Source: Escherichia coli
GTDB lineage: Bacteria; Pseudomonadota; Gammaproteobacteria; Enterobacterales; Enterobacteriaceae
Strand: one strand, 5' to 3'
Length of the DNA: 64,000 bases
Assembly (NCBI RefSeq): GCF_003334315.1
Contig: NZ_QOWR01000009.1
The translations under genes and the position numbers were made by a program. Below the pieces are notes generated by a model that was not told the origin of the DNA, made no database searches, and saw only the letters and a list, made by a program, of their open reading frames with translations. Positions 45,530-62,640 of the stretch are shown here, in pieces. The first letter of the stretch is position 1. Each line of letters starts with the position of its first letter.

Positions 45530-45612
45530 GGCATATTCGGTCCGGCGTTTCCTGCCGGATGCGGCGCGAGCGCCTTATCCGGCCTACAAAGGGCGCAAAC
45601 GTCGCGCCCTTA
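45530..45612. repeat. REP (repetitive extragenic palindrome) elements
   Basis: Contains GCCGGATGCGGCG...CGCCTTATCCGGCCTACAAA, the canonical E. coli REP sequence. Confidence 0.65.
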
Positions 45613-53251: not shown

Positions 53252-54688
53252 TCAGCGTTTGTAACCCCCGCCCAACGCACCAGTGAGTTGAATGGAGGCA
53301 TCCAGCCACTGCCCTTGCAATAACAGGCCATTGGCCCGCTCACGCAGCGCGGGGATTCTGGCTTCGCTGACGCGGGAACCAGCAATGATGCCCGCGTTAA
53401 AGCGCGCCTGCGCAAGACCTACCACACGCAAGGCATCGCGCTCAATTTGCGCCTGATGCTGGTTTTTCTCCGCCAGTGTCTGAACCTGACTGGCTGCCCG
53501 CGCCACGTCATTCACCGCTTCAACCACCGCTTTGTTGTAGCTGGCGATAGACAAGTTGCTTTCGGCTTTTGCGATATCGAGATTGGCGTTAAGACGACCA
53601 CTATCGAAAATGGGTAGCGTCAGGCCTGCCGTAACGCCCATTTGCTGCGCGGAATGACGGAACAGATCGCTTAAGTGCAACGCATCCTGTTGCAGGAAGG
53701 CCATCAGGTTGATGTCAGGATAAAATGCCGCTTTTGCCGCATCAATGGTGCTTAGCGATGACTCAACGTACCAGTGCGCCGCCTGCAAATCTGCCCGCCG
53801 GGCCAGTAAGGAGTACCCCAGTTCATCAGGAAGCTGGCTTGCCACTTTCGGCAACGCGACCGGTTTAAGCTTCAATGACTTTGTCTGGTTATTTGTAAGT
53901 GCGCTTAACCGTGCCTCAATAATTTTCATTTTCCCCGCGACATCGTTGAGCTGCTGCCGGGTTTTGCTGGCATTAATATCGGTTTCCACACCTTCAACTG
54001 AAGAAGTAATCCCGTTCTGATATAGCTGGCGATCGGTCGCGATAATGGTGTTCTGCTCTTTTTCTATTTGCTGCAAGACCGTGTTTAACGCCGCCTGGGT
54101 TTGCCACTCCCAGTACAGGCGGGCTACGCTGCCAGCCAGCAATTGGCGGGTTTGCTCGCGTTCCGCCGCCCGTGCTTTAACCGTACCCAGGCGGGCAGTA
54201 ACCTCCGCCCGATTCTTTCCCCAGATATCGAGATGCCAGCCCGCCGTTAAGCCAAAAGTACCGTTGGTGTACCACGGGCCGGTCGTACCTGCGGCCGGAT
54301 CGTTCAGAGCAAACGGCCCCATTAAGCCTTCTGCCGACATTTTTTGCCGCTCCATATCCGCCGAAAAGTCGATCTGCGGACCATCCTGAGTGGCAACTGC
54401 CTTCGCCTGGGCTTCAGCTAGCTGAATGCGCTGTTCAGCCACCTGCATATCCGGTGCGTTCTGTAGTGCATTGTTAATTAAGGAAGTGAGTTGATTATCG
54501 TGATACTCCAGCCACCATTGGCTGTCTGGCCAACCATTTTTCAGCGCCGTGGGTAATGCGGTGTCAACTTGTGCAGCGGGCGTTTGCTGGCTTAACGCCT
54601 GGCGGGTTTCATGCATAGGCGCACACCCGGCCAGCATCAGTAACAGCGGAAAACAGGCGATGGCTGGATAAAAGGAATCACGATTCAT
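53252..54688 (-). CDS. mdtQ: Outer-membrane efflux lipoprotein (OMF/TolC-like), intact
   Basis: 478 aa from MNRDSFYPAIACFPLLLMLAGC (lipobox); no internal stops. Confidence 0.8.
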   Translation of the reverse strand: MNRDSFYPAIACFPLLLMLAGCAPMHETRQALSQQTPAAQVDTALPTALKNGWPDSQWWLEYHDNQLTSLINNALQNAPDMQVAEQRIQLAEAQAKAVATQDGPQIDFSADMERQKMSAEGLMGPFALNDPAAGTTGPWYTNGTFGLTAGWHLDIWGKNRAEVTARLGTVKARAAEREQTRQLLAGSVARLYWEWQTQAALNTVLQQIEKEQNTIIATDRQLYQNGITSSVEGVETDINASKTRQQLNDVAGKMKIIEARLSALTNNQTKSLKLKPVALPKVASQLPDELGYSLLARRADLQAAHWYVESSLSTIDAAKAAFYPDINLMAFLQQDALHLSDLFRHSAQQMGVTAGLTLPIFDSGRLNANLDIAKAESNLSIASYNKAVVEAVNDVARAASQVQTLAEKNQHQAQIERDALRVVGLAQARFNAGIIAGSRVSEARIPALRERANGLLLQGQWLDASIQLTGALGGGYKR

Positions 54689-54911
54689 GGGGGAATAATC
54701 AGGTAAGAAAAGGTGCGCGGAGATTACCGTGTGTTGCGATATATTTTTTAGTTTCGCGTGGCAATACATCAGTGGCAATAAAACGACATATCCAGAAAAA
54801 TATACACTAAGTGAATGATATCTTCCGATTTATCTTAATCGTTTATGGATAACGGCAAAGGGCTTCGTTTTTTCCTATACTTATTCAGCACTCACAAATA
54901 AAGGAACGCCA

Positions 54912-54995
54912 ATGAAAATTATACTCTGGGCTGTATTGATTATTTTCCTGATTGGGCTACTGGTGGTGACTGGCGTATTTAAGATGATATTTTAA
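54912..54995 (+). CDS. yohP: Small membrane protein (27 aa)
   Basis: MKIILWAVLIIFLIGLLVVTGVFKMIF with a GGAA Shine-Dalgarno-like sequence upstream. Confidence 0.7.
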   Translation: MKIILWAVLIIFLIGLLVVTGVFKMIF

Positions 54996-55079
54996 AATTA
55001 ATTAATGTCATCAGGTCCGAAAATAACGAGAATATTTCAGTCTCTCATCCTGTTGCGCTCCTGTCATGTGCATTGCTTC

Positions 55080-55330
55080 ATATAATCACTGGCGCAAGGA
55101 GCGCGCAGGGGGCGGCCAATCGCCGCCGCCCCCTGCACCCCCGGGCTCTGGCGAACAAAATCGCCGCTGCGCGGTGCCCTCGACTTATCCCTTACGGCTA
55201 CCGGGTCGGGCGCGAGGTAACATCCCTGTAAAACGCGCCCTCAGCCCACATCCATGTGGGCTGCCCCGGCCTTCAGGGAACGCCTCGGCAATTTTGACGC
55301 CACCAAACAACCGTGCGGCCTATTGATAAA
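55080..55330. repeat. GC-rich, highly palindromic non-coding island (unclassified intergenic repeat or structured element)
   Basis: Perfect 11-bp stem CAGGGGGCGGC/GCCGCCCCCTG at 55106..55135; 8-bp stem AGCCCACA/TGTGGGCT at 55243..55262; G+C is far above the flanking sequence. Confidence 0.4.
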
Positions 55331-55367
55331 GAGCTAACACATTGTCAAAAAACATCACTATGGTTTT

Positions 55368-56315
55368 TTAGAGTTTCTCGATATCAATTGCCTGAATAGC
55401 CCTTGCAATATCAGGGGAATTATTCAACACCCGAACATGCTGAAATAATTCCGTTGCTTCATCGTATTCTTTACGCAAATAACTCAACCACTGTTTAATC
55501 CGCGCAACGTGATATAACCCGGTATCGCCCTGCTTTTCCAGACGGGTATATTTTTGCAGCAAAGCAACCACCTCCGGCCACGGCATTCGCGGTTCGTTAT
55601 ATTTTACCACCCGGCTCAGGTTGGGAATATTGAGCGCCCCGCGACCAATCATCACTGCGTCGCAGCCGCTGATCGCCATGCATTGTTGCGCGCTCTGCCA
55701 GTCCCAGATTTCACCGTTGGCAATCACCGGAATATTCAGCCGCTGGCGAATATCGCCAATCGCCTGCCAGTCAATATGCTCCGCGCGGTAACCCTGCTCT
55801 TTCGTCCGCCCATGCACCACCAGCTCCGTAGCACCAGCCTGTTGAACCGCATCGGCGATTTCAAATTTCTTCTCACCGCTGTCCCAGCCCAGACGCACTT
55901 TCACGCTGACGGGCAAATGCGCCGGTACAGCTTCACGCATCGCTTTTGCACCCTGGTAGATGAGTTCAGGATCTTTGAGTAACGTCGCCCCGCCGCCGCT
56001 ACCGTTAACCGTTTTCGACGGGCAGCCGCAATTGAGATCCACGCCCCAGGAACCTAACTCCACCGCACGGGCGGCGTTCTCTGCCAGCCATTGTGGGAAC
56101 TGACCTAACAACTGCACGCGCACCAGCGTACCAGATGGTGTCCGGCTGGCGTTTTGTAGCTCAGGGCAAATGCGATGAAAGACTTTTACCGGCAGCAGTT
56201 GATCCACCACGCGGACAAACTCGGTGATGCACAGATCGTAGTCGTTAACTTCGGTCAGCAATTCACGCACCAGAGAGTCAAGCACTCCCTCCATCGGTGC
56301 CAGTAACACACGCAT
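55368..56315 (-). CDS. dusC: tRNA-dihydrouridine(16) synthase
   Basis: 315 aa from [13 protein letters not shown]. Confidence 0.9.
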
Positions 56316-56517
56316 ATCATCACCCGCAAAAAAATGAGGCGCTATGTTAGCGCCTATGGTCAGCGGATTAAAGGTCTGCAAAGAGGGATTGCTGCAAACT
56401 GCAATCCCTCTCTATGCTTGATGTATGCCTGAGTTCGCTGCGCATTGCGTAATGCCGGGGAGCGAAAAAATAAGCGCTGATTTCTTAATGTGATCGGTAG
56501 CACGTTTTACGAATTAA

Positions 56518-57773: not shown

Positions 57774-59769
<1,996 letters not shown>

Positions 59770-62430: not shown

Positions 62431-62439
62431 AACCAGAGA

Positions 62440-62640
62440 CGCATCCGGCATTTGGTTCCTGTCGCCGGATGCGGCTTGAACGCCTTATCCGGCCTACAAA
62501 ACCATACAAATCAGTATGTTGAGCTTATTGTAGGCCGGATAAAACGCGCCAGCGTTGCATCCGGCATTTGGCTCCTGTTGCCGGATGCGGCGTGAACGCC
62601 TTATCCGGCCTACAAAACCACACAGATCATGATGTTATGT
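62440..62640. repeat. Cluster of REP elements (BIME)
   Basis: Repeated GCCGGATGCGGC(G/T)TGAACGCCTTATCCGGCCTACAAA units in alternating orientation. Confidence 0.75.

Follow-up and report, generated by a model that had tools for sequence, protein, structure and literature searches.

The window analyzed here, a 64,000-nt stretch of Escherichia coli DNA, contains a GC-rich island between the convergent genes yohP (54912-54995) and dusC (55368-56381, minus strand). The island lies 43-57 bp past both stop codons. Mapping of yohP and dusC to E. coli K-12 MG1655 relates the two numberings by a simple sum (window coordinate + 2174070 = NC_000913.3 coordinate). With this offset, the published span of the repeat TRIP1c (NC_000913.3 2229122-2229394, 273 bp, between yohG/yohP and yohI, the latter being dusC) falls on the island. 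So does the element RRS-dusC, because the dusC stop codon ends at window position 55368 and RRS-dusC was described as lying 58-281 bp downstream of that gene (Table 1). The yohP-dusC island is TRIP1c and RRS-dusC, a repeat and a functional DNA element that had both been described before.

The TRIP1 repeats were described by Rudd (1999) and re-surveyed at five named loci by Li et al. (2024; Genes 15:236, PMC10888264). In that survey, TRIP1a is about 94% identical to TRIP1c and in the opposite orientation, and TRIP1b lacks 125 bp of its interior. Pham, Cox, Goodman and colleagues came upon the two full-length copies anew and named them "replication risk sequences," RRS-lysO and RRS-dusC (Pham et al., 2023, 2024; PMC10287960, PMC11194060). 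They defined RRS-dusC as a 222-bp GC-rich element, and a later paper returned to the RRS (Kusi-Appauh et al., bioRxiv 2026). By ssGap-seq, prominent RecA- and SSB-bound lagging-strand ssDNA starts at each RRS and extends for about 1.4-2.5 kb, and the RecA/SSB-ssDNA peaks at lysO and dusC vanish upon deletion of the respective RRS (Pham et al., PMC10287960, PMC11194060). In vitro, the G4 strand stops Pol I, II, and IV at the position of the G4, and RRS are active at ectopic sites. At least one RRS copy is conditionally essential: the double deletion was obtainable only with a 200-kb amplification (insH7-8 region), or with other or inverted copies present, and genome-wide supercoiling was altered when both copies were deleted or inverted (Pham et al., PMC10287960, PMC11194060). 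In single-molecule replication, almost every pass left a gap when the G4 strand was the lagging template; with the C strand in that place the figure was about 66%, and neither strand was effective on the leading template (Kusi-Appauh et al., bioRxiv 2026). The discoverers' hypothesis is that RRS act as topological relief valves near the Ter macrodomain borders.

Results

K-12 has two further copies: one in the lysO-aqpZ interval and another, which has lost internal sequence, after putP. TRIP1c aligned with TRIP1a in inverted orientation at 94.5% identity over 272 bp, and with TRIP1b in two matching pieces, 85% and 87% identical, that flank the internal deletion. The published G4 motif, GGGGGTGCAGGGGGCGGCGG, had a single exact match, on the minus strand, where none would be expected by chance. 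The minus strand is both the strand of the G4 motif and the G-rich strand, and the G4Hunter-like maximum score of the window copy was 1.84. Its map position of 2.229 Mb lies in the left replichore of the established K-12 map. The minus strand is therefore the lagging-strand template, in agreement with the negative plus-strand GC skew of the window (-0.023).

The G+C content was 63.7% for the whole repeat unit and 67.0% for the RRS core. Segments of 273 nt taken across the 64 kb averaged 50.7% (sd 5.5), and 0.05% of them reached the value of the element, which bears out the above-background G+C reported in an initial annotation of this DNA. The two palindromes named there are also real, and slightly longer than described. 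The 11-bp stem placed at 55106-55135 has 12-nt arms (55105-55116 and 55125-55136) that are 100% complementary with 8 nt between them; the 8-bp stem placed at 55243-55262 has 10-nt arms (55242-55251 and 55254-55263), likewise 100% complementary but 2 nt apart, so that 8-9 bp are effective. When folding energies were compared with those of 200 dinucleotide shuffles, z was -6.0 for the minus and -5.5 for the plus strand as DNA, and -5.5 and -5.1, respectively, as RNA. Not one of the 200 shuffles folded as well as the element on either strand, as DNA or RNA.

The island had been described as something other than a canonical REP. In agreement, the REP consensus GCCGGATGCGGCG was absent from 55040-55340 at up to 2 mismatches, with 17 matches elsewhere in the window, and a REP identity was rejected for this reason. 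An 86-aa plus-strand ORF could be read as encoding a Pro/Gly/Arg-rich protein. Its frame is open in the window, and long stop-free frames occur in most homologues, as is expected at about 65% G+C. However, among 44 homologues the fractions of variable columns at the three codon positions were 0.64, 0.63, and 0.73, with no third-position excess; the homologues are separated by scattered 1-nt indels, and their substitutions are paired across stems. A coding ORF was rejected for lack of codon periodicity, and we give this reading practically no credence. The frame is a composition artefact, as the annotation had proposed.

Table 1. Features of the TRIP1c/RRS-dusC island, in window coordinates.
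Feature	Position	Strand	Remarks
Whole repeat unit TRIP1c	55052-55324	-	Sense (G4) strand is window minus; published coordinates plus offset
RRS-dusC as deleted by Pham et al.	55087-55310	-	58 to 281 bp downstream of dusC
Published G-quadruplex motif GGGGGTGCAGGGGGCGGCGG	55123-55142	-	Exact single match
G/C-rich hairpin, perfect 12-bp arms	55104-55137		Sense-strand 5' arm overlaps G4 motif; helices 10-11
Terminal hairpin GCGCTCC...GGAGCGC	55056-55103		Helix 12
Large closed domain, outer stem around two GGA-loop hairpins	55156-55296	-	Inverted repeat; helices 1-4
Outer stem of closed domain	55156-55163 with 55289-55296, continued 55178-55191 with 55276-55288	-	
Hairpin 1, CAGCCCAC-AUGGAU-GUGGGCUG on sense strand	55242-55263	-	Helix 5
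Hairpin 2, GGGCGCG...UUACAGGGAUGUUA...CGCGCCC on sense strand	55208-55240	-	GGA is complement of 55223-55225; helices 6-7
Conserved unpaired block GGGAUAAG / GGAAUAAG (plus strand: CTTATCCC)	55184-55191	-	Invariant or near-invariant alignment columns
86-aa ORF, not a gene	55066-55326	+	Without coding signal

Blastn matches were found in 5,426 of 5,426 complete E. coli genomes, at 1 to 10 places in each and at a median of 3, so the earlier suggestion of another intergenic repeat family was sound. The alternative offered with it, a remnant insertion, finds no support: 5,423 of these 5,426 genomes have the element at the dusC locus, and its fold is under selection (see below). Blastn also returned matches in Klebsiella (13 places in one K. 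pneumoniae chromosome), K. aerogenes, and Citrobacter. A pattern scan of species-representative genomes gave 41 loci, in Citrobacter, Leclercia, Silvania, Pseudescherichia, Pseudocitrobacter, Enterobacter soli, and several Escherichia species. This pattern demanded CATCCATG and CTTATYCC, whose conservation in pattern-found loci is by construction; it missed Klebsiella, where the spacer is of 9 nt, and possibly other genera. A search of a phage collection gave no match to the element. That the family reaches Klebsiella, Citrobacter, Leclercia, and other genera is new here.

An alignment of the G4 strand was built from 44 distinct copies in Escherichia, Klebsiella, Citrobacter, Leclercia, Silvania, Pseudescherichia, and Pseudocitrobacter. 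The consensus structure has 60 pairs in three domains, namely the terminal hairpin, the G/C-rich hairpin, and the large closed domain of Table 1. Over the 44 copies, 98.9% of cells were paired, as against 35-46% when partners were slid by 1-3 columns. Compensatory pairs numbered 23 of 60 versus 2-7 in the slid controls, and the covariation score was 0.332 versus at most 0.095. Since pairing, compensatory changes, and covariation are all far above the slid controls, the fold is under selection. Helices 10-11 showed compensatory changes in 5 of 8 pairs. In helix 12, 3 of 7 pairs were compensatory and 98.4% of cells paired, and the terminal GCGCTCC...GGAGCGC becomes CGTTCAC...GTGAACG in Citrobacter and Leclercia. 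Helix 5 had compensatory changes in 4 of 6 pairs and occurs as CCCAC/GTGGG, CCCGC/GCGGG, CCAGC/GCTGG, and GGCGC/GCGCC.

The loop of hairpin 1 was unchanged among BLAST-found copies; in the pattern-found copies it was imposed by the search pattern and is not independent. The loop of hairpin 2, which the pattern left unconstrained, read RCANGGAYGY in 44 of 44 copies, and in Leclercia and Silvania it is exactly AUGGAU. The GGGAUAAG/GGAAUAAG block was invariant or nearly so, which is independent evidence only in BLAST-found copies, as the block was part of the search pattern. A purely thermodynamic block gives no account of invariant GGA-containing loops.

Alifold gave -68.4 for the G4 strand versus -59.6 for its complement. 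On pairs common to both strands, G-U numbered 23 versus 8 for A-C, a mild preference for the G4 strand that cannot separate RNA from single-stranded DNA. The foldability of both strands fits the 2026 experiments, in which gaps arose from either strand.

The G4 motif overlaps the perfect 12-bp hairpin, the pairing of which covaries. This G-rich hairpin is CAGGGGGCGG/CCGCCCCCTG in Escherichia and Klebsiella, TAAAGGGCG/CGCCCTTTA in Citrobacter, and CCAGGGTGGC/GCCACCCTGG in Pseudescherichia, pairing being kept while the sequence varies. G4Hunter-like maxima were 1.76-2.8 in Escherichia, Klebsiella, and Pseudocitrobacter, about 1.45 in Leclercia, and 0.9-1.2 in Citrobacter, Pseudescherichia, and one Silvania copy. 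G4 propensity is thus not conserved together with the fold.

Orientation at the two K-12 full-length loci was scored in the 5,426 complete E. coli genomes with 116-nt junction queries, half flank and half element, counting genomes at 80% coverage or more. At dusC, 3,420 genomes had the K-12 junction and 2,003 (37%) the inverted one; the corresponding counts at lysO were 4,127 and 1,295 (24%). Together, K-12 and inverted junctions cover nearly all 5,426 genomes at both loci. In O25b:H4, the dusC-locus element is inverted with respect to yohP and dusC, and in EDL933 the lysO-locus element is inverted with respect to lysO and aqpZ; the spacer on each side differs too in both cases. Both copies are inverted in strain E69 and neither is in SCPM-O-B-8794, and the dusC copy alone is inverted in Escherichia sp. 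E1V33 and E. whittamii. At 29 family loci, local GC skew of the flanks, a noisy proxy, was positive at 16 and not at 13, which shows no clear preference for one orientation. The junction counts confirm the forward and reverse counts of Li et al. (PMC10888264), now with the flanking genes as reference and in complete genomes.

Recombination between the two copies would give a large inversion, which cannot, by simple reasoning, turn an element around in place. Comparison of the insertion boundaries, between K-12 and O25b at dusC and between K-12 and EDL933 at lysO, revealed no inverted repeats at the ends that would explain in-place inversion, and no target duplication. The sole "empty" site examined has a different repeat.

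When the window copy was compared with Rfam, nothing reached the gathering score. The best match on the minus strand was to the full length of TwoAYGGAY (RF01731), at 55296-55159, with 29.7 bits (E = 0.029) against a gathering score of 43. Other weak matches (AgvB at 22.9 bits, and several miRNA and snoRNA models) were dismissed as chance. TwoAYGGAY scores were 30.6 for TRIP1a, 33.1 for the copy at alx-sstT (Ec64A), and 31.3 (E = 0.006) for a Leclercia copy with AUGGAU in both loops. Pseudocitrobacter, Leclercia, and Pseudescherichia also contain divergent sister copies, inverted and about 50-100 bp beyond a TRIP1-type copy, which are collinear with TRIP1 over about 230 nt. One of these, in Pseudocitrobacter (L032), reached 49.2 bits (E = 5.7e-5), above the gathering score. 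As for the AYGGAY loops themselves, loop 1 of the element (AUGGAU) fits; loop 2 does not in E. coli (AGGGAU), whereas it is AUGGAU in Leclercia and Silvania. The element also has the long closing stem.

Discussion

TRIP1c was catalogued in 1999 and functionally characterized in 2023-2026, and its detection in a scan adds little to what is already known. The initial annotation was right about a non-REP, GC-rich, palindromic intergenic repeat with an artefactual ORF. The novelty that it implied did not survive, as the family has been named and studied: the island clearly matches a known repeat family (TRIP1c/RRS-dusC), an outcome that the annotation itself had set against its proposal. Three side results remain new: what is conserved is the fold and not the G4, orientation is polymorphic in nature, and the core resembles TwoAYGGAY.

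TRIP1c/RRS-dusC is very probably a foldable DNA element that makes replication leave a lagging-strand ssDNA gap. It is one of two near-identical, mutually inverted copies of a structured DNA repeat of about 270 bp. Upon unwinding by the replisome, the exposed lagging-strand template, here the window minus strand with GGGGGTGCAGGGGGCGGCGG, would fold fast into a highly stable structure of several hairpins, which by the published work includes a G-quadruplex. The lagging-strand polymerase would then be halted at the fold and the Okazaki fragment given up, so that a post-replication ssDNA gap of about 0.3-2 kb would remain, on which SSB and RecA could load. As the discoverers propose, such transient programmed gaps might serve as swivels that ease topological stress in termination and segregation. 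The gaps, the polymerase block, the ectopic activity, the conditional essentiality, and the weaker effect of the complementary strand come from the experiments of others and are taken from the literature. Our own results are that the island is TRIP1c/RRS-dusC, that it has the exact motif and on which strand, that it folds exceptionally well, and that the hairpin fold is under selection across enterobacterial genera.

We infer that the conserved and selected feature is the whole hairpin architecture and not the G4 alone. Because G4 propensity is not conserved with the fold and the G4 motif overlaps a covarying hairpin, the G4 may not be the universal blocking structure. One possibility is that a strong G4 is a lineage-specific reinforcement of a conserved hairpin architecture. 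The published strand asymmetry of polymerase blockage still calls for some strand-specific factor. A fold conserved across genera with a lineage-dependent G4 suggests that G4 and hairpin be told apart by mutation.

Selection on the whole architecture would also explain why either orientation is tolerated in nature. Both orientations are frequent at the two loci in natural E. coli, which fits the 2026 finding of gaps from both strands. The polymorphism qualifies the statement that RRS orientation is conserved or fixed, and it is compatible with function if either strand can block, as has been reported (Kusi-Appauh et al., bioRxiv 2026).

The element might instead be mainly a selfish, non-autonomous mobile repeat, MITE-like or palindrome-associated, with gaps as a by-product of its structure. 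Its copy number and loci are variable, as seen above for E. coli (1 to 10) and K. pneumoniae (13), and one locus (L007) has two direct copies 437 bp apart. Sister copies form inverted pairs beside family copies in Leclercia, Pseudocitrobacter, and Pseudescherichia, a single locus can show both orientations with a different spacer on each side, and at alx-sstT the element takes the place of another palindromic repeat. The K-12 "empty" site at alx-sstT has a different GC-rich repeat, not alignable with TRIP1, which indicates replacement rather than insertion and leaves no clean target-site duplication. However, the ends of the element have neither terminal inverted repeats nor a target-site duplication, and we know of no transposase associated with TRIP1. 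Its presence at the dusC locus in nearly every genome (5,423 of 5,426), together with the cross-genus compensatory changes, argues for selection at the level of the host. The conditional essentiality of at least one copy (PMC10287960, PMC11194060) also speaks against a purely selfish repeat, which we consider unlikely. Less probable still is a role as transcription terminator or mRNA 3'-end stabilizer for the convergent yohP and dusC, such as REP/BIME can have. The location, 43-57 bp beyond both stop codons, and the very stable hairpins would suit this role, and no separate terminator-like site was predicted for either gene. Nevertheless, no hairpin is followed by a U-tract on either strand, at the lysO locus the element sits past the apparent aqpZ terminator, and a simple terminator does not require a conserved 270-nt multi-domain fold with invariant loops.

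It has also to be considered, as the annotation suggested, whether the element is, perhaps in addition, a structured RNA: a minus-strand transcript, for instance the 3' end of the dusC mRNA, whose GGA loops CACAUGGAUGUG and UUACAGGGAUGUUA would bind a CsrA dimer. Two GGA sites about 28 nt apart would suit the spacing rule for such a dimer, and both E. coli loops resemble RUACARGGAUGU, which is reportedly the SELEX consensus of CsrA. On the sense strand no Rfam family scores higher than TwoAYGGAY, for which one sister copy is above the gathering score and which shares the clan label CL00106 with a CsrC family; CsrA binding has been proposed for it (Gardner and Eldai). The sense strand folds slightly better than its complement (-68.4 versus -59.6; G-U 23 versus A-C 8), and the GGA of hairpin 2 is kept in all 44 copies without constraint from the pattern. 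On the other hand, a site scan gave no promoter- or terminator-like site within the element or next to it, at lysO and at putP the sense strand runs antisense to the genes on either side, and orientation flips between strains. Both dusC and ybjE are marked "No" for CLIP-seq and three other target sets (Potts et al., 2017), and the part of the supplement available as text lists no CsrA peak coordinate near 2,229,1xx-2,229,3xx or 915,0xx-915,2xx. The window copy is under the Rfam gathering score, and the second GGA is lost in some sister copies (ACACGA in Pseudescherichia). Finally, the known activity needs no transcription, as purified replisomes show it in vitro (Kusi-Appauh et al., bioRxiv 2026). 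An RNA role is thus improbable, and the gap-inducing DNA element remains the preferred reading.

TRIP1/RRS and TwoAYGGAY are probably related. TwoAYGGAY was described from gamma-proteobacteria, Clostridia, and gut metagenomes as two AYGGAY loops enclosed by a closing stem that is often very long (Weinberg et al., 2010), and it is multi-copy in Psychromonas ingrahamii (Weinberg et al. alignment). The TwoAYGGAY, RRS, and TRIP1 literature that we examined does not make this link. That the two-hairpin core of TRIP1/RRS and RF01731 form one structural class is a tentative idea, which we would sooner doubt than assert, and in view of the evidence against an RNA role (promoter, orientation, CsrA CLIP) TRIP1c is not filed here as a TwoAYGGAY member. 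If it were true, either the approximately 200 TwoAYGGAY "RNAs" of Psychromonas, Clostridiales, and human-gut metagenomes would be DNA-level gap-triggering repeats, far beyond enterobacteria, or RRS elements would double as CsrA-binding transcripts. The resemblance may point to candidate RRS-like elements in other phyla and to a possible CsrA connection.

The window copy does not differ from TRIP1 in coordinates, 273-bp length, identity to TRIP1a, or the deletion of TRIP1b (Rudd, 1999; Li et al., 2024), nor from RRS in position or in the exact G4 motif on the lagging-strand template (Pham et al., 2023, 2024; Kusi-Appauh et al., 2026). With TwoAYGGAY it shares the long closing stem, the two adjacent hairpins, and the A-N-GGA-Y loops, but TRIP1 has two further hairpin domains, and TwoAYGGAY was described as RNA whereas RRS acts as DNA. 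RNAs of the CsrB, CsrC, and McaS type likewise carry GGA motifs in hairpin loops, of which TRIP1c has only 2-4. REP/BIME are also GC-rich extragenic palindromes between convergent genes; they are about 35 bp long, contain the consensus GCCGGATGCGGCG, and occur in hundreds of copies, whereas TRIP1c is about 270 bp long, lacks that consensus, and occurs in 1-10 copies. The pilE G4 of Neisseria gonorrhoeae is presumably a short G4 that serves antigenic variation, without sequence relation to TRIP1c, and not a Ter-flanking multi-hairpin repeat. The RRS authors name it as the one other sequence in bacteria for which a replication-associated gap triggered through a G-quadruplex has been reported; only two bacterial sequences, RRS among them, are thus reported to program post-replication gaps.

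Orientation and occupancy of TRIP1/RRS loci

The orientation of the TRIP1/RRS unit, a structured repeat of about 270 bp, varies among E. coli strains at both loci scored. Among 5,426 complete genomes, 2,003 carry the entire unit inverted with respect to the neighbouring genes at dusC, and 1,295 do so at lysO. The two orientation alleles carry different spacer sequence on either side of the unit. Comparison of window 55040-55345 with L003 (2441-2822) and L002 (2441-2826) revealed no mechanism for an in-place flip.

Occupancy also differs between strains. Where some E. coli strains have TRIP1d between alx and sstT, K-12 carries a different GC-rich palindromic repeat reading CCCTCTCCC...GGGAGAGGG...GGGTGAGGG...CCCTCACCC, which resembles Box C. 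As seen by comparing K-12 (L054, ~350-700) with L053 (520-1200), the strain difference at this locus is a replacement rather than a simple insertion. At putP, an E. coli-type gene end (117 nt, 100% identical) adjoins a full-length TRIP1 copy in L047, a 583-bp contig of 0.7x coverage assigned to 'Bacillus sp. EB106-08-02-XG196'. This contig is most likely E. coli contamination in the Bacillus assembly, and it shows that the putP locus is able to hold an undeleted TRIP1 copy.

Features in and around the window element

Supplementary Data 2 of Potts et al. (2017) lists a dusC mRNA half-life of 3.25 min for the wild type, compared with 1.74 min for the csrA mutant (log2 ratio -0.90). The change is flagged there as not significant, and dusC has no assigned CLIP peak in that dataset. 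A weak Rfam match to AgvB at 55018-55078 (+), spanning the yohP-side edge of the window copy (TRIP1c), scored 22.9 bits (E = 0.11), where the gathering score is 56, and was judged to be due to chance.

Elsewhere in the window, exact and near-exact copies of the REP consensus GCCGGATGCGGCG cluster on alternating strands at 45554-45583, 58666-58678 and 62437-62609; these are ordinary REP/BIME elements. NC_000913.3 labels mdtQ (53252-54778, -) a pseudogene, at 2227323-2228758. Yet a single uninterrupted 508-codon frame in the ORF list of the window spans that entire range, and its alignment with the intact O25b gene runs from end to end (1,437 nt, 98%).

Related copies in other genera

A divergent sister subfamily, inverted and lying about 50-100 bp past a TRIP1-type copy, was found in Pseudocitrobacter, Leclercia and Pseudescherichia. 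Its L032 member, at 49.2 bits, exceeds the Rfam TwoAYGGAY gathering score of 43.

Copies of the sister subfamily by comparison locus
Locus	Position	Strand
L032	2165-2400	+
L044	6852-7053	-
L046	12918-13125	
L020	3597-3805	
L021	3713-3921	
L022	6659-6867	
L030	7905-8113	

K. pneumoniae CP125156.1 (L007), a chromosome-sized record of 5.37 Mb that is catalogued among plasmids, has two direct TRIP1/RRS copies 437 bp apart (1460-1736 and 1897-2173) and 13 TRIP1/RRS places in total. Copy number in Klebsiella is therefore far above the picture of a pair flanking Ter.
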